Below are positions 2,962-60,048 of a stretch of DNA of 64,000 bases, in pieces. The notes under the pieces are model-generated. The model ran no database searches. It saw nothing but the letters and a program-made list of their open reading frames with translations, and was not told where the DNA came from. The stretch lies in the NCBI RefSeq assembly GCF_013106755.1, contig NZ_WHPF01000010.1, positions 162,335 to 226,334 of the forward strand. The letters are read 5' to 3'. The position numbers were made by a program, and so were the translations under genes. The stretch comes from Limnovirga soli. Lineage in GTDB: Bacteria > Bacteroidota > Bacteroidia > Chitinophagales > Chitinophagaceae. Numbering within the stretch: position 1 is the stretch's first letter; each line of letters begins with the position of its first letter.

Positions 2962-3006
2962 AGCCAGGTACAAAAGGCATCTGTAGTTGTGTCACTCACT
3001 TGTGCG
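2962..3006 (+). repeat. Family-1 element, variant core GTTGTGTCACTCACTTGTGCG with adjacent GCCAGG...CTGTAG box
   Basis: Direct read. Between the GH16 start and the small ORF at 3029. Confidence 0.7.
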
Positions 3007-3028
3007 TTCAAATCCCTATTCAACAGAA

Positions 3029-3250
3029 TTAAATATCGATAGCCTCTATTATTTCGCCAAGTTCTGCAGCTAATGGTGTTGCCCCTTTATCTGCTTCGTA
3101 CCATTGCCAGGTTTCGTTTACTAATTCTTCTGCAATTATTACCTGCGAAGCAAAATGTATTATAAAATAAATATTGCCGCCATTTATTACCGGAGAAACC
3201 TTTACCTGCCTGCCGGCAAAAGTTATAAAAAAATCTTCCTCATTTGGCAT
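3029..3250 (-). CDS. Small hypothetical protein (73 aa) with weak PqqD/RRE-like similarity
   Basis: ATG at 3250. The stretch LVNETWQWYEA resembles the LNETaaxIWell motif of PqqD-family peptide chaperones. The similarity is weak and unverified. Confidence 0.35.
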   Translation of the reverse strand: MPNEEDFFITFAGRQVKVSPVINGGNIYFIIHFASQVIIAEELVNETWQWYEADKGATPLAAELGEIIEAIDI

Positions 3251-3448: not shown

Positions 3449-5311
3449 CTACCTATACCCTTTTGCCTGTAGTTGAAATAACTCGGCATAGCGGCCATTT
3501 TGTTGCAGCAATTGTTCATGGCTGCCCAGTTCTATCAACTGCCCTTTTTCCAGCACCAGAATACGGTCGGCCATGCGCACGGTAGAAAAACGGTGTGAAA
3601 TCAATACTGCAGATTTGCCCTTTGTCAGCTCAGCAAAACGTTGAAACACTTCATACTCTGCACGGGCATCCAGCGCACTGGTAGGTTCATCTAATATCAA
3701 TACTTCGGCTTCCTTCATATAGGCGCGGGCCAATGCTACTTTCTGCCATTCACCGCCCGATAATTCTATGCCATCATTAAAACGGCGGCCCAATGCCTGA
3801 TCATATTGATTGGGTAATTTCATGGCCAACAGGTTAGCCAGGCTTTTTTCAGCAGCCTTAATAATTAAAGGGCGGTTATTTTGCTCATCTATATTACCAA
3901 CTGCAATATTTTGCGCAAAGCTCATCTGGTAGCGCAGGTAATCCTGAAAAATAACGCCTATATGTTTGCGCAGTTGCAAAATATCATATTCCTTCAGGTC
4001 TATATCATCCAATAAAATACGGCCCTCTTCAGGATCATATAAACGGGCCAATAGTTTTACCAGCGTGGTTTTGCCGGCTCCGTTCTCCCCTACCAATGCC
4101 AGTTTTTCACCAGCATGTAAGGTAAAACTCAAATAACGGTTGGCCCATTGCTCGCTATTGGCATATCTAAAACCTACATTTTCAAATACAAAACCCTTTT
4201 GTATGGGGTTAGGAAATGGTAGCGGGGTTTTGCTCACTTTTATTTTGGGTTTTATTTCAAAAAAATCAAAGAAATCCCTTAAGTAAATAGCCCCCTGAGA
4301 TACCGTACTAAAACGCGATAATATCCCTTCCAGTAAACTGCGTAACTGACGGAAAGAGCCGGCCAGGAATGTAAGATCACCGATGGACAAAGACCCTTCT
4401 ACCGTTTTTAAAATCATAATAATATAGGCCGCATAATACCCCATACTACCCAATATGGCAAACAAACTACCCCATGCTGCCCTGCGGGTAGAAAGCGATT
4501 TATTATCCGCATAAAACTGCTGACTAAGTGCCTTAAACCGTTTTATCAAAAAGCCTGACAAATCAAAGAGTTTTACTTCTTTGGCAGTCTCGTCGCTGGC
4601 GCCCAGGTAACGCATATAATCCAATTCGCGGCGTTGAGGGGTTTGCCCGCGGGTAAGCGCATAACTTTGATCGTTAAAATAAGATTCGCCCAAAAAAGCA
4701 GGTACAATTGCTATTAGTAATAACAATATCAACCATGGGTTAAAAGCCATTAAGCCCACTGCTAAAAACAACATGGTAATTAAATCCTGCACCTGCGTTA
4801 ATACCTGCGATAATAATACAGTCCGCCCAACGGTTTGCTGGCGGGCACGTTCCAGCTTATCGTAAAAAGCAGAGTCTTCAAACTGGTCAAGGTCCAGGGT
4901 GGCGGCATGTTCCATAATTTTTACAGAAGTATGGTTAGAAAACAAATCGCCCAATAAACCATCAACCAGCGATATGGCCCGGCTTAATGCATCAGATACT
5001 ATTGCCAATACAAACTCAGCTGCCACCAACTGCCACAAATAAGTATGATCTGTATTTGAATCAGGTGTTTTGGCTAACAGTACCACCTGATCAATAATCA
5101 ATTTACCAATATATAAAATAGCCACAGGTACGGCAGATTTGGCAATACGCAAAACAGCATTAATAATAGTGTACCAGCAATTGGTTTGCCAAACCAAAGC
5201 AAAAAAACGGGGCAGGTTACGCAGGGCAGCAAATTTTTCTTTTAAAGTTGGTTGTGGCACCCGGTTGTATAACAGCGGCCTTTTTTCGCGGGCCATTCTT
5301 ACCTTACTCAT
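3449..5311 (-). CDS. ABC exporter with fused N-terminal permease and C-terminal ATPase (MsbA-like)
   Basis: Walker A GENGAGKTT, ABC signature LSGGEWQKVALARA, Walker B ILDEPTSALD, and multiple N-terminal TM helices. The track start at 5329 is TTG; the first in-frame ATG is at 5311 (MSKVRMAREK). Confidence 0.9.
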   Translation of the reverse strand: MSKVRMAREKRPLLYNRVPQPTLKEKFAALRNLPRFFALVWQTNCWYTIINAVLRIAKSAVPVAILYIGKLIIDQVVLLAKTPDSNTDHTYLWQLVAAEFVLAIVSDALSRAISLVDGLLGDLFSNHTSVKIMEHAATLDLDQFEDSAFYDKLERARQQTVGRTVLLSQVLTQVQDLITMLFLAVGLMAFNPWLILLLLIAIVPAFLGESYFNDQSYALTRGQTPQRRELDYMRYLGASDETAKEVKLFDLSGFLIKRFKALSQQFYADNKSLSTRRAAWGSLFAILGSMGYYAAYIIMILKTVEGSLSIGDLTFLAGSFRQLRSLLEGILSRFSTVSQGAIYLRDFFDFFEIKPKIKVSKTPLPFPNPIQKGFVFENVGFRYANSEQWANRYLSFTLHAGEKLALVGENGAGKTTLVKLLARLYDPEEGRILLDDIDLKEYDILQLRKHIGVIFQDYLRYQMSFAQNIAVGNIDEQNNRPLIIKAAEKSLANLLAMKLPNQYDQALGRRFNDGIELSGGEWQKVALARAYMKEAEVLILDEPTSALDARAEYEVFQRFAELTKGKSAVLISHRFSTVRMADRILVLEKGQLIELGSHEQLLQQNGRYAELFQLQAKGYR

Positions 5312-5773: not shown

Positions 5774-5823
5774 GCCGCCACAAAGGTGGAACCCCGAACC
5801 GAGCGTGGCAAGCGGTGATGCCA
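5774..5823 (+). repeat. Family-2 element GCCGCCACAAAGGTGGAACCCCGAACCGAGCGTGGCAAG followed by TGGCA-N7-TGCCA hairpin
   Basis: Direct read. Five related copies in the window. Overlapping six-frame ORFs carry a conserved ..NRAWQAVMP.. peptide, which is a translation artifact of the repeat. Confidence 0.8.
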
Positions 5824-5896
5824 TTTATGCAACAGCCGGTTACCCAATAAAAAAAGCCCCGTACCATGTACAGGGCTTTTATAATAGTGATTTTTT

Positions 5897-14151: not shown

Positions 14152-14202
14152 GCCGCCATAAAAGAGGAACCCTGAACCGAGCGTGGCAAGCGGTGATGCC
14201 AT
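14152..14202 (+). repeat. Family-2 element (GCCGCCATAAAAGAGGAACCCTGAACCGAGCGTGGCAAGCGGTGATGCCA)
   Basis: Direct read. Confidence 0.8.
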
Positions 14203-14254
14203 GGTTAACCAAAGCTGGTTTCAAAAAAAATAATAAGAATGTTTTTGTGCTTTA

Positions 14255-18314: not shown

Positions 18315-18495
18315 GCATCGCCGCTTGCGTCGCACTCTTGTACTTTTGGTTATAGCATGGGCCAAATGGCCGGCGGCTGATAATTTATTAAATGGTTTTG
18401 CAGTTAATGCTATTGGCTGTTAAATGCCGCACCTAATTACTACAGTAAAAGTGAGCGACGCAAGTAAAGCATCAATTCAATTACATTGCCGGGCC
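18315..18495. repeat. Family-1 full palindromic composite (forward core 18325-18343; degenerate reverse core 18445-18464; GCCGGGC 18488-18494)
   Basis: Direct read. Lies between the pdxA start and the stop of the large GH gene. Confidence 0.8.
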
Positions 18496-32284: not shown

Positions 32285-32340
32285 TCTGTATTTATTTCTG
32301 TTATTTTTTTTTGTTACCAGCCAATAATCAATATGCAGCT

Positions 32341-32384
32341 TTACTTGCCACGCTCGGTTCAGGGTTCCTCCTTTGTGGCAGCTG
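32341..32384 (-). repeat. Family-2 element, reverse orientation (CTTGCCACGCTCGGTTCAGGGTTCCTCCTTTGTGGCAGC)
   Basis: Direct read. Confidence 0.8.
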
Positions 32385-32466
32385 ATAATATGTTGGTGTA
32401 TATTTTTTACTCTTTGCTAGATCCAGGTTATGGGTCCAAAATACCTTGTTGAAGTATATCCCAAAC

Positions 32467-32515
32467 GAACAAGAGTGCGACGCAAGCGGCGATGATAGCA
32501 TTGGTATAGCCGGGC
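32467..32515 (-). repeat. Family-1 element (core GAACAAGAGTGCGACGCAAG; box AGCCGGGC 32508-32515) abutting the stop of the gene at 32515
   Basis: Direct read. Confidence 0.8.
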
Positions 32516-38532: not shown

Positions 38533-40044
38533 ATGAAATTTGTATTATTTGTATTACTCTTTGTATTGCTGGCTTTTAAAATTCAAGCCCAACAAGAAAA
38601 TAGCATTGTTATTGGAAAAGTGGACAGTGTGTATTCCAGGATTTTAAATGAGCAGCGAAAAATTTGGGTATATGTGCCTGATATGAGGGGTGGCATGCAT
38701 GCCCCCAACCAAAAATATCCTGTAGTGTATTTACTAGACGGCGACGGACACTTTGAATCGGTAGTAGGCATGATACAGCAACTGAGTGAAGTAAATGGCA
38801 ATACAGTTGTTCCTGAAATGATTGTAGTAGGTATACCAAATACCGACCGCACAAGGGATTTAACCCCTACCCATATTGACAGCGATTTACCAATGATGGA
38901 TAGTGGCTTTTCAAGAACTACCGGGGGTAATGAAAACTTTATTTCGTTTATTGAAAAGGAATTGATGCCGCATATTGATTCTGCTTACCCCACACAACCA
39001 TATAAAACACTGATAGGCCATTCGTTTGGCGGCTTAACAGTGATGAATGTACTTACCAATCATACTAAACTTTTTAATGCATATATTGCTATAGACCCCA
39101 GCATGTGGTATGATAAAGAACGCTTTTTACAAGCTACCAAACAGAAGCTTACCGCTAAAAAATATGATGGTACAAGATTGTATTTAGGCATCGCCAATAC
39201 CATGCCCGAAGGTATGACGCTGGATAAAATGAAAAAAGATACCAGTGTCGATACCCGTCATATTCGTTCCATTTTTGCAATGGACCAATTTATAAAATCC
39301 AACAGCGCTAATGGGCTAACGTATGCCAGCAAATATTATGCAGATGATGATCATGGATCAGTGCCATTGATAAGTGAATACGATGGACTGAGATCTATTT
39401 TTAATTATTATCGATTTAAATTTACGCAAGCGGATTTTACTGATTCAAGTACTGCTTTGCCTACCAGGCTGGCAAAACATTATACTACTATATCAAAAGC
39501 ATTTGGATATACCGTTTCTCCGCCCGAAATGCAAATTAACGGGTTGGGTTATCAGGCATTAAGCCTTGGGCAGTATACAAAAGCAGCAGTTTTATTTCAA
39601 ATGAATATTGCCAACTATCCATCCAGCGGTAATGCACTGGATTCTTATGGCGATTTACTGGCTGCCAAAAAAGATACCCTTAATGCAATTGCCTATTACG
39701 AGAAAGCTTTGGCCATCAACAGCAATGAAGAAACCAAACAAAAGTTACTGCAACTACAAGGCAAAGCTGCATTTACCATCAGTGCGCAAGACCTTCAAAA
39801 ATATGTGGCTGCATTTGAATTTACCGATGTACCAGCCACTGCTACCACAGCTATCAAAGACAACGCTTTATTTGCTACAGTACCCGGACAGGGATCGTTT
39901 GAGCTGGTGCCGGTTGCAACCGATACTTTTAAAATTAAAGGTTTGGAAGGTTTTAAAATTCACTTTGAAATGGATGGCAATACGGTGATTGGATTAACTT
40001 CAATACAGGCAAATGGTACATATAAAGCAAAGGTGAAAAAATAA
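38533..40044 (+). CDS. Secreted esterase (alpha/beta-hydrolase, enterochelin-esterase-like) with C-terminal TPR-like and beta-rich domains
   Basis: Signal peptide. GxSxG motif LIGHSFGG. TPR-like segment YYEKALAINSNEE. First ATG at 38533 (the track start at 38524 is TTG). Confidence 0.75.
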   Translation: MKFVLFVLLFVLLAFKIQAQQENSIVIGKVDSVYSRILNEQRKIWVYVPDMRGGMHAPNQKYPVVYLLDGDGHFESVVGMIQQLSEVNGNTVVPEMIVVGIPNTDRTRDLTPTHIDSDLPMMDSGFSRTTGGNENFISFIEKELMPHIDSAYPTQPYKTLIGHSFGGLTVMNVLTNHTKLFNAYIAIDPSMWYDKERFLQATKQKLTAKKYDGTRLYLGIANTMPEGMTLDKMKKDTSVDTRHIRSIFAMDQFIKSNSANGLTYASKYYADDDHGSVPLISEYDGLRSIFNYYRFKFTQADFTDSSTALPTRLAKHYTTISKAFGYTVSPPEMQINGLGYQALSLGQYTKAAVLFQMNIANYPSSGNALDSYGDLLAAKKDTLNAIAYYEKALAINSNEETKQKLLQLQGKAAFTISAQDLQKYVAAFEFTDVPATATTAIKDNALFATVPGQGSFELVPVATDTFKIKGLEGFKIHFEMDGNTVIGLTSIQANGTYKAKVKK

Positions 40045-40085
40045 AAAACCAATTATTATAGTTGTTGCATTAAACTATTTTTTGA

Positions 40086-40260
40086 GCCCGGCACTTGAAT
40101 TTCTATTGGGCTTAACTTGCGTCGCACACTTGTACGGTTGGATTTATTCTTAAACAGTGTAATACTATCTTTGCAGCGAGTAAGTCTCATTGCTGCATAA
40201 AGTATCTATCAGCACAAGTGTGCGACGCAACGGATGTTTAATGCTTTATAAAAGCCGGGC
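40086..40260. repeat. Family-1 full palindromic composite (GCCCGGC 40086-40092; forward core 40117-40135; reverse core 40212-40230; GCCGGGC 40254-40260) between the convergent esterase and A2M genes
   Basis: Direct read. Confidence 0.85.
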
Positions 40261-40280
40261 TAATAATTTTCCTTTTGTAT

Positions 40281-43200
40281 TTATGGTGCCTTATTTACAT
40301 TAATTTTTATACCCTGGCTATGGCTGCCAAAAGCAGGCGCATACATACATTCTATACTTGCAATACCTGCGGTAAAACTACCCGCCTGTGTAATAAAAAC
40401 CGGATACTCAAAAATATAAGTGCCCTTATTAATATTGCTGATAAAAAAGTTGGTAGCAGCATCTTTTGTTGATTCGTAATAGCCCAATCCATCCTGCCAT
40501 TTATAGCCACTTAATACATTAACCGGTTCCATGGTAGCTGCACGCATATCTTTAAGATGTAAGTACTCCATTGGCCTGTCGCAATGCAATTCAATGCGAA
40601 TAATTATTTTTTGCCCAACGGTTAATTCCTGTCCATCAGTTACAGGTTGCAGCACTTTACCGCTACTGGTATTTTCTTGTATAAACAATGATCGGGAAAG
40701 GGTTAAAGGCGAAGCTGCAGGAGTTATTTTATCCAGATCTTCAAAATATTGCCAGTATACAGCACCCCAGGATGGCAGTGCGATTTTATTGTTAACCGCA
40801 TTTTTTGCACTACTGGTAGTAACAGTAATATTACCCATACCAGCCGTTACGGCATTGCCACTGATACGTGTTTTGATATAGCCGGTACCAGCCTGCGCAT
40901 TGGATATATTTACAAGTTGGTTGTTTAAAGATATTTGCACCATGGTGTTATTAGTGATGGCTTTTGCAGTGTCTAGTAACAGGCTGTAACAGGCGTCTGC
41001 TGTGGCTTTGGTGGTTTCCCAATTATTGGTTTGCTTGTTTAATATTAGCCAGGTGCACATATTATTTGCATCAGTAGTTAGTTTACTGTTTTTTTGTTGC
41101 GCTGCCATTTCGCTTACAAGTTGAATAAGCAATGCCTGTTGCTCAATAGGATGCTGATACCAGTAATACCCGGCTTTACTGTTTTTCCAATACATGCCTT
41201 TTATACTGTCTGTTACTGCATTTTCTAAAATGGAAGGCAATATGTTTTTTTCGGTAAAAATTTGCTGACCTGTTTTGTTTAATGCCAATGCAATCATGGC
41301 CTTTAGATAAGTATTTTGAACATTCCAGTATAGTTTAGCCTGACGGGTATAATAATTTTGTGCGTTTGTAATACCCTCATTTGCTTTAATATTGGCAAAG
41401 TAACTGCGCATGTATAAATACTGTATTTGCAACATACCCAAATGGTTGTTATTGGCATCTTTTGCAGTTATGAAATGTTTGTCATTTTCAATTGCCAAAT
41501 CTGCATAGTGAATACCTTTTGTAATAATGCTTTGCAATAATCCATCAGTAGTATTATCAATAGCGCCAAGTGCTTTTAATTTGCCGATACCGGTTAATAT
41601 GTATTGTGTAATATACCTGTCTTCATAACCACCACTAAACCAGGGGAATGCTCCATTTTCCAACTGCATTTGCTGCAATTGTTGTAATGCTTTTGCAGAG
41701 GAAGCACTCATGTTTAATACATCAAATAGTAGGGCAATATTTTGTTGTTGCTGTGTTTCGGTGGCAGCATCTAATACCCATGGCGTTTCCTCCAGCAGAA
41801 TTTGTTTTAGTTCAGGATTTAAGGCAAGATTAGATTGCAGCGACTGATGAGTTGTGTCGTTTTTCCATTGTGCAAAAACGGATTTAATCCTGGGGAATCT
41901 GGCTACAATATAGGCAGCCAGCGTATTGGCATAAAAACGGTTAAATGTTTGTTCGGCACAATCCTGTGGGTATTCCATTAAATAGGGCAAAGCCTTTATG
42001 GCAAACCAAACGGGGTCTGGTGTATATTCAACAGTAAGGCTTTCGTTGGTTAAACTGGCAGAATTATTTTGCAGCAGTTTGGTAAAGTTGAATGTTTTTG
42101 AACCATTACCATGCATTAACAAAGGCAGGCTTTCTGTTACCAATATTCGGTTTGATAATAAAGGCAAAGTGTTTTCTTCACCATCAGAATAATTGCCAGC
42201 CTGTGCAATAATTTTAATGGTTAATGGATTCGGATAAGTAAATGGAATACTAACTGGAAATGTAACCTGAGTACTTTTACCGGCCTCAGCAGTAAAATAT
42301 TGATTAGGAAAAACGTTTTGAAACAGACCATCTACAGCTTCATTGGTAACGGCATCTATCAATTGCAGGTAAGCCTGACCGGTTAGGCTGCTATCGCTGA
42401 TATTACTGATTTTAGCAGATAATTCTATCTGGTCTCCCTCCCTTAAAAAGCGGGGCAAATTGGGTTGCACCATCAATGTTTTTTGGGTGGTAATGGTTTG
42501 TTGTGCATAACCAAATGCGAGCTCTTTGGTATAAGCGAAACTCATCCATTTCCATTGTGTTAATGCATCAGGCATAGTAAAACCAAACTGGTAATTGCCA
42601 TCTGCATCAGCCATTAATTGTGGTAGGAAGAACGCTGTTTCATTAAAATTTTTACGGGCTTGTATATTGGGCGGAGTTGCTGCTGATGTACCGTATGCCT
42701 GACCAGCTCCTGATTTCGTTTCTTCGTCTTTTATTATTTGTGGCGGAGTAAATTTCTTATCCCCTACTTTATTGTATGCCATTGCTTCTGGCATCATCAC
42801 ATCACTTTTGTCTCCTGCTTGAGTGATGTACCCCATCCTTGTCTGGTCATAACCATATTGCCAAAGCACATCTCCACTGGTAACCAATTCATCATAGCTA
42901 CTATAACCACTTTCTATGCTGGTTGGCAGCTCATTTTCTTCACCGCTTTTTGTACCAAAAGCATTGCGGCCATTAAATTCGTTTCGGGTGCTATAAGTTT
43001 CCCAAATATTGGGGGTAACCCATTTGTGTGGGATGAATTGGTCTAAAGAAGCGTCATACATGGTGGTTAATAATTCAGCAACCACTTTTTTCTCGTTATG
43101 GCCTTTTACAGTAAGCGACCATTGCTCCTTACTGCCAGGTTCGGTTTTATTTCTAAAACTACCATACGCTATGGTTAGTTCTTTGTCGATATATGGAATG

Positions 43201-46200
43201 TTCACATCCATACCCCCGGTATAAAACCGATTATGTTTTACAAATGCATAATAAACACCAAGCCCATTTCTATCGGCTTCACCAGCCAATAACTCAATTT
43301 TTTTCTTGCTGTCAGTTAGGCTATAAAACGAATAATTATCGGCTCTGTTGGGGTTTGAAGCCTGTCCTTTTATTTGCTGAATTACAAATACATCCTTCTC
43401 GTTTGTCCCTATCATTAATGCAGCTTTTTCACCGGGTTGTACGGTATTGTTTATAACCGTATTCCAGTTAGGCTGAGGGGAAGGCAAATTGTTGCTTTCC
43501 TTTGTAAATACCTGTATGTATTGCACATTTTTTATCTTATTGCCATCCTTATCAATTGTGCTGGCTTCAATACAATACCAACCTTGCTTTAAAATACCTG
43601 GTTGAATGATAAAATTTTGAGCATCGCCAGTATTCAAGCTATCAATTATGATTGGGTTTTCAACAGTCCATGTATGGTAATCGCTTTCTGCTTCATATTC
43701 ATCATAGGGGAAATATGTTGTAAAACTGGCTTTATCCAAACTAAATACATCCGGTCTTTCCCATAACCGTTTTCTATATAATTGTGTGGGCACAGTTAAA
43801 GGTGATATACTAATAATTACGTTTGCTGGCACCAACTGTCCGGCAATATTCTCTGTACGCACCGTTATTGCCTTAAAAATTGCAGCATCAACCACGTCTG
43901 GCACCTGCAGTTGCAATTGCATAGATGTATACCCAACTGAAATAACACTGCTGGTTTCATGGGTTTCTCCACTGATATCGGTTACAGTAATATCGATAGT
44001 AAAATCAAATACAGGATCGTTGCTTTTATCAGTGGTAACATCTGGCAATGCAGTAATTGCTATTGCAAAACGTCCGTCATCATTTGTTGTAACTACTCCT
44101 TCGGCTATTTCCTGTTCATTAGAACCGGGCTCAGCCATTTTCCAAAACATCCAGGGATACAGGAACCTGGTATTTCTCTTTATATTATAAGTTACTGTGG
44201 CTCCACCTAAAGGCTGACCAGCAAAAGCCTTTGCAAATCCGGTAAGTTGTATGATTTCATTTAAACGATAGCTGCTTTTTAGTGTATCTATTGCAATATA
44301 AAATGCCGGGCGTTTATATGCCTCTACCTGCACACTTGCAAGGCTGTTAAACAAATTAGTAGTTATGCTAAAACTGCCCGTTAATACCTGTTTTGGCAAT
44401 TGAAAGGAGCCGGTAAAAGAACCAAAATCATTTAGCTTTACCTTAAGAGAATCTATCAACTGGTTATTTACATCTTTTAATTCTACCATAATACTGTCCT
44501 TAAAATCCGATAATCTGGCGCCAGTGGCATTGGGCTCCTTATAAATACCAATTCCTTTAAAAAGAATGGTTTGCCCGGGGCGGTAAATGCTTCTATCAGT
44601 AAAAATATGAATGGTAGTATTTAGTTCTATAGCATTTACAGCTGGCGGGGCGCTGCTAGTATTATTAAATGATCCATAATAATTGCTGTTTTGCAATACT
44701 AAAGAATCGTTGCCCTGTTTAAAAACAAGTGAAATATTTCCTTCATTTTTAAAATCAATATTTCTTAAAGAAAAATAGCCATGCATATCTGTTGCCAAAT
44801 GGCCAGCATTGGCAATTATATAAGCACTCTTTGTATAATCATATCGTTGAATGGCAAATTGTATTGTTGCATCTTTAATTGGCGCTCCGGTTTCCCTGTT
44901 TAAAACAAAATAATCAGCGCCATTATTAATAAAACTGATATTACTAACATCAAAACTTTGCACTACCAGTTTATCATTTTGCGTATCAAAACGGTCACTG
45001 CCTGCTGCCAATATAAAATAGCTACCTGCACCCAACCCATCAATTTTTATTTCGGTAGCATGCTCCTGATAATCATTGGTGGCAGGTAAAGCCTGCGAGA
45101 GGGTTTTTATTGCAGGTACAGCAGTGATGGCTTCCCAGTAGCCATCTTCCCACCGTTTCATTTTGATAGTTTTTAATTCGGCTGCATTAATAATTCTAAT
45201 ATTGATATTAGTTATATTCCGGTATTTTACCAGCATGCGAAAAGGTTGGTCAGGCACATTTATACTTTCAACCGTGGTGGATAACTGTTGTTCCTTAATA
45301 CTAAATAGCAAGTGCTGCATATTTAAAACACCCATACTGTCAGCATCCTTTTGTTGTAATTGTTTCCCTGCAATACCTATCGCCTTTAAATAATCGTAGC
45401 GATAACTGGTATCCCCAAACGGCGTATACAATTTTGCCTGGTCGGCATATTGTTTGGCCAGTAAATACCATGCATTAATGGTAAATTTATCATTGGGAAA
45501 GCTGGTTGTAATATCTTCCAGTGCTTTTGTATATAGTACTTTTTTATTTTCAAAAATTCCGTGTTCATTTACCCATTCAATTCGTTCCAGATTTATATCA
45601 ATAAAAGCAGCAGGATCATTATCACGGGCATGAAACCGCATCAGTTGTTGAAAAAGTTGTAATGACAATAACAAGTTAGAACTGCTATCTTTTGAAATAA
45701 AACGGGCATCCATAAATATTGCTGCACTGCCCAATGCCGCAGAATCCTTTATGGTAAATGCATAAGCAGGCTTGGTGATATAATTGTTCTCATCTTTGTA
45801 ATACTGAAGGGCAACATGTGCCAATAAATCGTATAAAGTAGGCCTCAGGTTAGATCTGTTACCTTTATAAATAATTGGTGCATACGCATCAGTTTTTATT
45901 TGCTGTAATAAGGTTACAGGCTCCAGCGCCTTTGCATATAATTTGTTAATGGCTCTATTTAAATCATCAGGGCTCCAGGTGCTAATATCGTTTTTAATTG
46001 TAGCAACAGTGGTACTTCTGTCAAACGACTGCCATCGCAATTCGTTGGTATAAATATTTGCCAGCATTATTTGCAATACACTTTTTTGGGCTATATTTTT
46101 GGTGCTGTTAATTTCATTTTGAAGCAGTTTTACTGTGGCATTCGCGTCTTCATCTGTAACCTTTTCCTGCAGACTAATTATATAAATTAAGGCTTTTAGC

Positions 46201-46400
46201 ACCTGCGCATCAAGCCCTCTTTTTTTGGCATCTGTATAAATAATTTTTACTTTTTGCAAGGCTGTTTTAGGCAGGCTTTTCTGTACAATCAGTGTGTCAA
46301 TTATCTTCCATTCTTTGGTATAATTTATATCTTTCATCTGTGCAACTGATATTAGGTAAAAAGCTATGGTACAAAGGGTAAATAATACTATCTTTTTCAT
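40281..46400 (-). CDS. Alpha-2-macroglobulin-family protein (2039 aa)
   Basis: Signal peptide, multiple MG-like domains, and a thioester-like motif CAEQ in YPQDCAEQTFNRF. The size is typical of bacterial A2M. Confidence 0.8.
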   Translation of the reverse strand: MKKIVLFTLCTIAFYLISVAQMKDINYTKEWKIIDTLIVQKSLPKTALQKVKIIYTDAKKRGLDAQVLKALIYIISLQEKVTDEDANATVKLLQNEINSTKNIAQKSVLQIMLANIYTNELRWQSFDRSTTVATIKNDISTWSPDDLNRAINKLYAKALEPVTLLQQIKTDAYAPIIYKGNRSNLRPTLYDLLAHVALQYYKDENNYITKPAYAFTIKDSAALGSAAIFMDARFISKDSSSNLLLSLQLFQQLMRFHARDNDPAAFIDINLERIEWVNEHGIFENKKVLYTKALEDITTSFPNDKFTINAWYLLAKQYADQAKLYTPFGDTSYRYDYLKAIGIAGKQLQQKDADSMGVLNMQHLLFSIKEQQLSTTVESINVPDQPFRMLVKYRNITNINIRIINAAELKTIKMKRWEDGYWEAITAVPAIKTLSQALPATNDYQEHATEIKIDGLGAGSYFILAAGSDRFDTQNDKLVVQSFDVSNISFINNGADYFVLNRETGAPIKDATIQFAIQRYDYTKSAYIIANAGHLATDMHGYFSLRNIDFKNEGNISLVFKQGNDSLVLQNSNYYGSFNNTSSAPPAVNAIELNTTIHIFTDRSIYRPGQTILFKGIGIYKEPNATGARLSDFKDSIMVELKDVNNQLIDSLKVKLNDFGSFTGSFQLPKQVLTGSFSITTNLFNSLASVQVEAYKRPAFYIAIDTLKSSYRLNEIIQLTGFAKAFAGQPLGGATVTYNIKRNTRFLYPWMFWKMAEPGSNEQEIAEGVVTTNDDGRFAIAITALPDVTTDKSNDPVFDFTIDITVTDISGETHETSSVISVGYTSMQLQLQVPDVVDAAIFKAITVRTENIAGQLVPANVIISISPLTVPTQLYRKRLWERPDVFSLDKASFTTYFPYDEYEAESDYHTWTVENPIIIDSLNTGDAQNFIIQPGILKQGWYCIEASTIDKDGNKIKNVQYIQVFTKESNNLPSPQPNWNTVINNTVQPGEKAALMIGTNEKDVFVIQQIKGQASNPNRADNYSFYSLTDSKKKIELLAGEADRNGLGVYYAFVKHNRFYTGGMDVNIPYIDKELTIAYGSFRNKTEPGSKEQWSLTVKGHNEKKVVAELLTTMYDASLDQFIPHKWVTPNIWETYSTRNEFNGRNAFGTKSGEENELPTSIESGYSSYDELVTSGDVLWQYGYDQTRMGYITQAGDKSDVMMPEAMAYNKVGDKKFTPPQIIKDEETKSGAGQAYGTSAATPPNIQARKNFNETAFFLPQLMADADGNYQFGFTMPDALTQWKWMSFAYTKELAFGYAQQTITTQKTLMVQPNLPRFLREGDQIELSAKISNISDSSLTGQAYLQLIDAVTNEAVDGLFQNVFPNQYFTAEAGKSTQVTFPVSIPFTYPNPLTIKIIAQAGNYSDGEENTLPLLSNRILVTESLPLLMHGNGSKTFNFTKLLQNNSASLTNESLTVEYTPDPVWFAIKALPYLMEYPQDCAEQTFNRFYANTLAAYIVARFPRIKSVFAQWKNDTTHQSLQSNLALNPELKQILLEETPWVLDAATETQQQQNIALLFDVLNMSASSAKALQQLQQMQLENGAFPWFSGGYEDRYITQYILTGIGKLKALGAIDNTTDGLLQSIITKGIHYADLAIENDKHFITAKDANNNHLGMLQIQYLYMRSYFANIKANEGITNAQNYYTRQAKLYWNVQNTYLKAMIALALNKTGQQIFTEKNILPSILENAVTDSIKGMYWKNSKAGYYWYQHPIEQQALLIQLVSEMAAQQKNSKLTTDANNMCTWLILNKQTNNWETTKATADACYSLLLDTAKAITNNTMVQISLNNQLVNISNAQAGTGYIKTRISGNAVTAGMGNITVTTSSAKNAVNNKIALPSWGAVYWQYFEDLDKITPAASPLTLSRSLFIQENTSSGKVLQPVTDGQELTVGQKIIIRIELHCDRPMEYLHLKDMRAATMEPVNVLSGYKWQDGLGYYESTKDAATNFFISNINKGTYIFEYPVFITQAGSFTAGIASIECMYAPAFGSHSQGIKINVNKAP

Positions 46401-46503: not shown

Positions 46504-46706
46504 TACCGGCTGTATATTATTGTGCAGCTGCTGTTGTGTCACTCACTTGTACGTTTATAACAATAGGCAACATTAGTAACAACACTTTTATTGATTGTAT
46601 CATACTTTAAACAGGCATTTGGGTTAATACCTACAGCCCGGTTTAAATACAGCAGTACAAGTGTGCGACGCAAGTAAAGCCTCATATACATTCATTTGCC
46701 TGGCCC
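46504..46706. repeat. Family-1 full composite (box ACCGGCTGTAT; variant core 46533-46552; reverse core 46655-46674; box GCCTGGCCC 46698-46706)
   Basis: Direct read. Confidence 0.8.
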
Positions 46707-48789: not shown

Positions 48790-49275
48790 CTACATCACGT
48801 TTTCCGGACTAACCAGGTAATTGCGCAAGGTTAGTCTGGCCCTGTGCAGATATACTTTCACCTGTGCCGCATTTAAGCCGGTAATTTGTCCAATTTCTTC
48901 ATAACTATATCCTTCATAGTCTTTTAACATTACCAGGCTCTTCTGCACCTCATTTAATCTGTTTAGTGCTTCCTGCAGCGATTGCCTTAGGTTGGTTACC
49001 GGTTGACGGGTGCTTCTCCCATCTTCCTTTAATTCATCCGTTAATTGCACCCTCTTGCTTTTTCTCAAATGATCTATCATCTGGTTATAGGCCACCGTAA
49101 ACAGGTAAGATTTGCATTTTGCATATTCCACCATATCCCGGTTGCGCCAGAGTTTTTCAAACGCTGTTTGAACAATATCCTTCGCATCATCCTCATGCCG
49201 TAAATTCTTTACGATGAAGCGAAACACGTTGTCAGCGTATTGATTCACACATTGGTTATATTCCCTTTCCGTCAT
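48790..49275 (-). CDS. ECF-subfamily RNA polymerase sigma-70 factor
   Basis: Region 2 (FEKLWRNRDMVEY...YLFTVAYNQMIDHLR) and region 4 (SLVMLKDYEGYSYEEIGQITGLNAAQVKVYLHRAR). The ATG at 49275 is preferred. Confidence 0.88.
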   Translation of the reverse strand: MTEREYNQCVNQYADNVFRFIVKNLRHEDDAKDIVQTAFEKLWRNRDMVEYAKCKSYLFTVAYNQMIDHLRKSKRVQLTDELKEDGRSTRQPVTNLRQSLQEALNRLNEVQKSLVMLKDYEGYSYEEIGQITGLNAAQVKVYLHRARLTLRNYLVSPENVM

Positions 49276-49400
49276 AAGCTGTATTTCTTGGTCTGTGCAT
49301 TGAAAGTACACCTGTTATACGTTGCAGCATTTTTAAAGTTACAGGGTAGGCAAAATATTTCTACAATTGGCCTTATTCATTTTTATACCTCTTTTATTAG

Positions 49401-51564: not shown

Positions 51565-51780
51565 GCCAGGCTAATGGCCTGCAAACCAGGCTTTACTTGC
51601 GTCGCACTCTTGTACGGCAGCAAATGGGGCAACAAAGATTTTACCCACTGTTTATGGCTTTACAAATGGATTGGCACCTGTATTTGAAATAATCAATACC
51701 CAAAAAAAAACTGCTGCCTGTGGGTATAAACGTACAAGTGAGTGACACAACGGATGCATCATGCTTATTCTACAGCCGGC
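51565..51780. repeat. Family-1 full composite (forward core 51597-51615; variant reverse core 51732-51751; box CTACAGCCGGC 51770-51780) between the atpC terminator and the ruvB stop
   Basis: Direct read. Confidence 0.8.
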
Positions 51781-59939: not shown

Positions 59940-59985
59940 GCCGCCACAAAGGAGGAACCCTGAACCGAGCGTGGCAAGTAAAGCC
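59940..59985 (+). repeat. Family-2 element (GCCGCCACAAAGGAGGAACCCTGAACCGAGCGTGGCAAGTAAAGC) abutting the stop of the small ORF
   Basis: Direct read. Confidence 0.8.
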
Positions 59986-60009
59986 TGATATTTATTCTAC
60001 TGTTGGTAA

Positions 60010-60048
60010 CATAAAAAAAGAGCCGTTATTTACTAACGACTCTTTCTG
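60010..60048 (-). terminator. Candidate terminator after the flotillin-like gene (minus strand)
   Basis: On the minus strand: stem AAAGAGTCG...CGGCTCTTT (one mismatch) followed by TTTTTTTAT. Confidence 0.5.

Follow-up and report, generated by a model that had tools for sequence, protein, structure and literature searches.

A palindromic intergenic composite of Limnovirga soli is a tail-to-tail pair of diverged copies of an ~86-bp repeat found in Chitinophagaceae and phages

The palindromic composite at 40086-40260 of the window (the whole stretch of Limnovirga soli DNA analysed, 64,000 nt) is not one discrete element: two copies of an ~86-bp repeat, independent and diverged, lie tail to tail with their heads outward (head-out) and form a heterodimer. 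The repeat is probably (probability about 0.55) a dispersed element of the REP/BIME or REPIN kind whose core is recognised by a trans-acting protein, with the composite a tail-to-tail pair of such elements. Judged from sequence, the family appears specific to Chitinophagaceae and their temperate phages and seems to fit no described repeat type; among known kinds it would be filed under dispersed intergenic repeats.

The composite lies in the 236-nt gap between two convergent genes, an esterase gene and an alpha-2-macroglobulin gene (domains MG2, A2M and bMG10; PF01835, PF00207, PF17973), an arrangement described in the earlier note and borne out by gene and domain calls. The boxes, spacers, cores and 76-nt interior that the earlier note had placed in this gap were all read from the sequence where it had put them. 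Region 40035-40290 has 100% identity in an independent Logan assembly, so the composite is not an assembly artefact. The left unit is of the alpha subtype (spacer end GGCTTAAC) and the right unit of the beta subtype (spacer end ACATCCG). The main features are:

38533-40044, plus strand: esterase gene (PF00756), the upstream convergent gene; its stop codon is 34 nt before the left-unit T-run
40071-40162, plus strand: left unit (profile HMM E = 7e-18), head facing the esterase gene
40078-40083: T-run of the left unit
40086-40092: outer box GCCCGGC of the left arm
40093-40116: left spacer, 24 nt
40117-40135, plus strand: left core TTGCGTCGCACACTTGTAC, 19 nt, exact match
40136-40211: interior between the cores, 76 nt
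40136-40157: degenerate tail of the left unit
40158-40188: true spacer between the two tails, ~31 nt, with no counterpart in other dimers (five-composite alignment)
40187-40271, minus strand: right unit (profile HMM E = 1.1e-15, 40271-40187), head facing the alpha-2-macroglobulin gene
40189-40211: tail of the right unit
40212-40230, minus strand: reverse-complement core with one mismatch (TTGCGTCGCACACTTGTGC)
40231-40253: right spacer, 23 nt
40254-40260: box GCCGGGC of the right arm
40261-40268: A/T head of the right unit
40281-46400, minus strand: alpha-2-macroglobulin gene, the downstream convergent gene; its stop codon is 20 nt from the right-unit box

A repeat finder reported 27-nt arms at 40117-40143 and 40204-40230 with 85% complementarity, and an outer pair of 13 nt; by inspection, the box-to-core spacers of the two arms (24 nt and 23 nt) do not pair with each other. 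Folded as RNA, the composite reaches -66 kcal/mol (z = -6.4; as DNA, z = -6.7), with helices of 17 bp (core), ~8 bp (middle) and 8 bp (box) separated by internal loops. Because the box-to-core spacers do not pair, the fold consists of three interrupted helices (~33 bp in total), not one stem, and the stem of more than 45 bp expected in the earlier note is not predicted. The same note had described the interior as having no counterpart in other composites. This holds for the ~31 nt at 40158-40188, but not for ~22 nt at each end, which are weakly conserved unit tails; when the five composites were aligned, as had been proposed there, they were alignable only within the units themselves. What stands of that first interpretation is the conserved inverted arms, a composite-specific interior and a real hairpin potential; its two classifications, as a MITE or as a long REP hairpin, do not. 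The second of these does not suit a monomer that is non-palindromic and folds no better than shuffled sequence, and the first is taken up below.

Core- and box-anchored profiles, built from the window copies plus 233-281 copies from other genomes (281 units for the profile HMM), define an oriented, linear unit of ~86 nt with its parts in fixed order. The head consists of an A/T-rich (A-rich) stretch and a T-run (TTTTWTG in consensus) that occupies -41 to -33 relative to the start of the core. It is followed by a box, CCNGGC, at -30 or -29, a loosely conserved spacer of ~24 nt with a strongly conserved C at -6, and the almost invariant 19-nt core TTGCGTCGCACWCTTGTAC. After the core come ~13 variable nt and then TTCAGCA, where conservation ends abruptly, giving the unit a sharp 3′ end. 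The core has 25 matches in the window at ≤3 mismatches, against 0.02 expected, and these include all four further composites listed in the earlier note (1742-1959, 18315-18495, 46504-46706 and 51565-51780); GCCCGGC occurs 19 times, against 5.9 expected. The profile HMM gives 26 strong matches in the window (E below 1e-6), all intergenic, and then a few weak matches to the head only. The 26th family-1 unit, at 2987-3005(+) just upstream of gene 1988-2872, is degenerate, with a type-B core (TTGTGTCACTCACTTGTGC) that has four mismatches to the search pattern and without a recognisable head.

The core is ~95-100% conserved, and pairwise identity of the flanks within the window averages 0.37 (maximum 0.71); nearest-neighbour flank identity is 0.63 vs 0.53 in column-shuffled controls. 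Near-identical copies at different host loci were not seen, but the sample takes in only a little of each genome and may have missed recent ones. Two discrete core haplotypes, TTGCGTCGCAC and TTGTGTCACTC, are three linked changes apart, with a single intermediate seen (L184 12031-; loci fetched from other genomes carry L numbers). Both are common to several genomes, the pattern expected of subfamilies spread by copying. The core is either selected in place or kept because it is needed for copying, while the flanks drift. The variable spacers were also considered as guides, and they match the window or their own neighbourhood no better than shuffled spacers do.

The weak head-only matches revealed a second unit family, with four copies in the window:

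5778-5854, minus strand: second-family unit
14156-14245, minus strand: second-family unit
32304-32380, plus strand: second-family unit
59944-60029, minus strand: second-family unit

These copies have the T-run/box head and the alpha/beta spacer endings in common with family 1. The payload after TTGC is different and invariant (35 nt, CACGCTCGGTTCAGGGTTCCTCCTTTGTGG (CTTGCCACGCTCGGTTCAGGGTTCCTCCTTTGTGG), then CAGC), and the second family has no match in Rfam. The copies at 5854- and 32304+ face family-1 units 5680+ and 32467- tail to tail; these two apparently single units are therefore members of mixed dimers. Other core variants are found behind normal heads (L060 3348, L016 3768 and 5162(-), L030 4414, L063 334 and L038 2804); one variant payload consists of TTGC, a GC-rich hairpin of ~23 nt and GTCGCAC, and another is TTGCGCCTGCCCCGACGAGCC. 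The unit scaffold seems to accept several payloads, and conserved ends with a replaceable interior are, as a sequence pattern, typical of transposable-element subfamilies.

In the pooled set of window and fetched loci ~80% of units are single. Where two units lie <300 nt apart they are head-out in 26 of 28 pairs, with an inner spacing of 24-186 nt. Each of the five window composites is, by eye, made up of one alpha and one beta unit, alpha units having the spacer end GCTTTAC and beta units the CATCGCC or ACATCCG type, sometimes with a type-B core. Alpha/beta combinations account for 7 of 29 pairs in the pooled set, against 2.2 expected, and alpha/alpha for none. Dimer interiors are mostly non-matching among dimers. 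No direct repeat of 2 to 8 nt flanks, at any offset, the 12 dimers whose two boxes could both be placed (at best 3-4 of the 12 scored, for 2-3-mers in AT-rich flanks); inspection of the flanks by eye likewise showed none, and the search for target-site duplications outside the boxes proposed in the earlier note found none. That note had held that missing duplications combined with homologous interiors would point to an ancient conserved structure instead of mobile insertions; duplications are indeed absent, but the interiors are homologous only in the unit tails.

Some dimer interiors carry small repeats of their own. Those at L016 6333-6454 and L060 805-931, from one MAG, have a small element in common with its own inverted ends (GAACCTGGATTTTG ... 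AAATCCAGGTTC), which seems to lie nested between the tails. Dimer interiors of a host MAG and of phage contigs repeatedly contain short GGTCGAC..GTTGAC repeats (L052 546-598 and 6025-6077; L184 11978-12030; L201 6381-6433; L179 after 5819); the two L052 interiors are ~85% alike and the surrounding unit spacers differ.

Gene context was tabulated on a crude gene map drawn from the ORFs of all loci. Of the single units located between tandem genes, 51 run with transcription and 47 against it; a further 38 lie between convergent and 19 between divergent genes, and 14 of 235 copies were placed inside genes by the crude ORF calls. The 2:1 bias away from divergent regions is the usual picture with intergenic insertions that are tolerated. 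That neither strand is preferred speaks for an action, or for neutrality, at the level of DNA and not of RNA. The unit head faces the nearest gene; where the upstream gene runs in the direction of the unit, its stop codon is found most often at -45 to -41, immediately ahead of the T-run. In compact phage genomes some units, in either orientation, fill the entire gap from stop to start codon (L175 2468-2546 and 7014-7092).

Comparison of orthologous junctions revealed presence/absence differences in both hosts and phages. The atpD-atpC junction has a complete unit in L032 and a 55-nt gap without a unit in the window; upstream of atpD, the L032 unit differs from window unit 49431+ in place and has the opposite orientation. 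L029, syntenic over four genes, has no counterpart of window unit 33923-, and in the gap matching window 32285-32514 its unit is oppositely oriented. At the integrase-terminase junction of phages, a unit is present in L175, L197 and L203, where its tail supplies the final codons of the integrase gene together with its stop; L176 has 9 nt there. Further differences were found between L193 and both L175 and L183, and between L198 and both L201 and L184; in two of three phage comparisons the core-less “empty” allele keeps the head box. A clean empty site with exact boundaries was not found in these junction comparisons. Closer relatives of the window, sought for an exact empty-site comparison, were limited to the source contig and one identical Logan contig, and synteny is lost around esterase orthologues (60-76% identity). 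Units at orthologous positions have flanks no more alike than random unit pairs, also between genera, so that inheritance in place and independent insertion look the same.

In L193, positions 4387-4692 include a 76-residue Ala-rich C-terminal extension of a structural gene as well as a unit. The counterparts of this insert, L175 10211-10231 and L183 632-652, are 21 nt long, keep only a GCCTGGC box and lie directly before a start codon.

A scan of 185,579 species genomes identified the exact core (TTGCGTCGCACNCTTGTAC) in at least 117 genomic stretches. Those listed are all from Chitinophagaceae or from unresolved Chitinophagales, Sphingobacteriales or Bacteroidota MAGs, and genera among the matches listed are Segetibacter, Ferruginibacter, Flavisolibacter, Foetidibacter, Flavihumibacter, Lacibacter, Pinibacter, Puia, Paracnuella, Hydrotalea, Ilyomonas and Chitinophaga. 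In IMG/VR the word occurs in 32 phage stretches, with 58 units. Contig L175, which is among them, has genes for an integrase, a gpA-type large terminase and a lambda-type portal protein; we take it to be a temperate phage. Plasmid and cultured-phage collections gave no match to the repeat, and a literature search on the sequence or on repeats of Chitinophagaceae and Bacteroidetes returned nothing relevant. Within 1.1 Mb of loci no mobilising enzyme was found, including Y1 transposases (tblastn with an IS200 TnpA query). Head-out units 250-3200 nt apart enclose housekeeping genes only, with no autonomous element or parent insertion sequence between them; the plasmid collection likewise yielded no parent insertion sequence. 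No recurrent host protein cluster is associated with the units beyond common paralog families.

An action of the units in RNA, as terminator, 3′-end stabiliser, processing site or small RNA gene, with the dimer as a bidirectional terminator, is unlikely, although the composite folds far better than shuffled sequence, unit heads often directly follow stop codons and payload swaps in a common scaffold resemble the variable domains of structured RNAs. A scan of 39800-40500 for intrinsic terminators found none for either convergent gene, which also suits such a role. However, on both strands of a dimer the T-run precedes the hairpin and the A-run follows it, the reverse of intrinsic-terminator geometry, and strand preference is absent (51 vs 47). 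For monomers RNAalifold predicts no pairs, the folding z is about 0, sub-regions do no better than shuffled sequence, and a mutual-information scan of 281 aligned units detected no Watson-Crick covariation. Rfam 15 gave no match for the whole window at gathering thresholds, and chance-level matches only for 39950-40400. The hairpin itself does not seem to be the conserved feature, since ~80% of the pooled units are single, spacing is free and partners often have different core haplotypes, which weakens the stem. Promoter-like signals were also considered and rejected: in the Bacteroidetes -7 box, consensus TAnnTTTG, an A and a T are expected at positions where the T-run has A in 22% and, at the first T of TTTG, T in 43% of units, and the GG-TTGC spacing of sigma-54 promoters is, by eye, inconsistent between copies. 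That each unit encodes a small peptide starting from an ATG or TTG after the T-run is scarcely credible. In 85 of 141 units an ATG, TTG or GTG does stand at a fixed position ahead of the box, the left-unit frame is open for 23 codons when read by hand, and in one frame the C-to-T change at core position 4 is synonymous. Against this, the frame is not kept, since 59 units have a box-to-core spacing of 29 nt and 64 one of 30 nt. The three forward frames are open to the same extent, so that none is preferred, and the right unit of the composite has in-frame stop codons.

The classical MITE, in which the composite would be an insertion-sequence deletion derivative with ~86-bp imperfect terminal inverted repeats and the singles decayed halves, is improbable, and here the analysis departs from the earlier note. 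Such a derivation would suit the almost invariably head-out arrangement of close pairs, the degenerate or second-family partners of some apparent singles (5680+ with 5854-, 32304+ with 32467-) and the combination of conserved outer ends with a variable interior that is typical of transposon derivatives. It does not suit arms that are mostly solitary, complete and sharply ended at the tail, arm subtypes that differ, a spacing of 24-186 nt with neither a characteristic length nor a common interior, or a most conserved part that lies 30-48 bp inside the end, not at it; there is also no target-site duplication, and neither a transposase nor a parent insertion sequence was found in the 1.1 Mb of loci and the plasmid collection. 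Known MITEs (Correia/NEMIS, MITEAba12 and the Porphyromonas gingivalis MITE; PMC4596501) are likewise short, non-coding and intergenic with inverted ends, show presence/absence between related genomes, and can supply stop codons or alter gene 3′ ends, but differ from the present units, which lack target-site duplications, a fixed length and a common interior, occur mostly as complete single arms and are highly diverged save for one internal 19-bp word. A different account, which we regard as possible without favouring it, is that the units are cis-acting DNA sites of the host and no longer mobile, the core and boxes being bound by a nucleoid-associated, gyrase-like, roadblock or uptake-type protein, host selection or a molecular drive holding each copy where it is, and inverted pairs acting in both directions. 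Consistent with this, the core is near-invariant and the flanks near saturation, both within one genome and at the same junction across genera. HMM scores are bimodal (26 strong matches, then few weak ones) with no continuum of decayed copies, no orientation is preferred relative to transcription, the exact word is conserved across Chitinophagaceae, and the phages of these hosts carry it, as with uptake sequences. Evidence of the opposite kind comes from the presence/absence differences at orthologous junctions, including one inside the atpDC operon, from discrete haplotypes and alternative payload families that look copied, from some phage lineages whose cores and flanks change at the same rate (L175 2488- vs L197 3517-), and from the 14 of 235 copies inside genes (crude ORF calls), unlike uptake sequences. 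We know of no candidate protein that binds the core.

The reading as a REP/BIME- or REPIN-like dispersed repeat would account for the composite as follows. The units would be non-autonomous DNA, and the core a putative recognition site on DNA for a trans-acting protein. This protein, a transposase/recombinase-like enzyme or its domesticated descendant, would copy or maintain the units. The ends of the scaffold (head and TTCAGCA) would define the element; the hairpin at 40086-40260 follows from two units lying tail to tail. As neither convergent gene has a canonical terminator, this hairpin may mark the 3′ ends of both transcripts and could, as a secondary effect, serve there as a 3′-end structure in the way REP and BIME elements do. 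Tentatively, the units could represent a new class of element, with a non-palindromic ~86-bp scaffold, interchangeable near-invariant payloads and a putative dedicated DNA-recognising protein that keeps the 19-bp payload identical throughout Chitinophagaceae and their temperate phages. Such a protein could be a mobilising enzyme that leaves no duplications, or a host protein that reads the word, at gene boundaries, as a genome-wide self, uptake or chromosome-organisation signal.

The closest parallels are found among the REP, BIME and REPIN repeats of Proteobacteria, which are RAYT-associated, the single-copy RAYT gene having the repeats on either side, and include GTAG- or CGTC-tagged REPs (PMC3733652, PMC3116915). 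The tag is conserved and unpaired at the stem foot, and the CGTC type has a stem of 8-9 bp and a loop of 4-5 nt (PMC3733652). Points of likeness are abundance, extragenic location, bias towards 3′ ends and convergent genes, inheritance within a lineage and lack of target-site duplications, as well as frequent inverted, hairpin-capable dimers that are often subtype heterodimers, comparable to the Y and Z REPs of BIMEs; the alpha/beta heterodimers found here recall the alternation of REP types in BIMEs. CGTC-type REPs are likewise without an identified transposase. CGTC also occurs inside the present core (TTGCGTCGC...), where the best palindrome after it is imperfect, 5 bp long and centred on 2 nt. 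Unlike REPs, whose defining monomer is an imperfect palindrome of 20-40 nt able to form a stem-loop, the monomer here is ~86 nt long and non-palindromic, with no stem, no covariation and a folding z near 0. Many genera retain one exact 19-mer, most dimers are tail-to-tail and vary in spacing, and no RAYT was found in the 1.1 Mb of loci.

A short invariant word within a weaker extended consensus, dense and in both orientations, is characteristic of the Neisseria DUS and Pasteurellaceae USS, which also have family-conserved variants, form inverted pairs behind genes, and occur in host phages and inside coding sequence. The present family resembles them in its over-represented invariant word, occurrence in both orientations, conserved variants, inverted pairs and phage copies, and differs in that the word is essentially absent from coding sequence and constitutes 19 bp within an 86-bp motif. 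We know of no link of the word to competence in Chitinophagaceae. Pneumococcal BOX elements are modular, and MIRUs fill intercistronic gaps, co-oriented and translationally coupled. The units described here are similarly modular, with a common head and spacer and alternative payloads, and some copies span exactly from stop to start codon, but they occur in both orientations and without tandem arrays, in another phylum, and are unrelated in sequence.

Extrapolated genome-wide, the density in the window (~1 unit per 2.5 kb) would give of the order of a thousand or more copies and a large share of intergenic DNA. As units abut or supply stop codons and fill gaps, they affect annotation of gene ends, operon structure and assembly in these soil and rhizosphere bacteria. 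The exact 19-bp word, kept across genera and in prophages, implies a putative conserved protein that recognises it, which to our knowledge nobody has described. Its discovery would either bring Bacteroidota, with a substrate that is no hairpin, into the REP/RAYT picture or uncover a new genome-wide DNA signal. The word could also be used as a lineage marker, assigning contigs and prophages to Chitinophagaceae hosts.

Two other types of sequence were observed close to units. GC-rich palindromes of the CCCCTAAAGGGG type form a separate family in the same intergenic regions (L032 about 1136-1160, 2770-2795 and 3000-3030; L029 about 2270-2300). Window 49304-49348, on the 5′ side of an ECF sigma-factor gene (48790-49311, minus strand), is a stretch of ~45 nt that is ~85-90% conserved across genera (L060 6600-6660(-)), unlike the flanks of the adjacent unit, and may be a leader or promoter.
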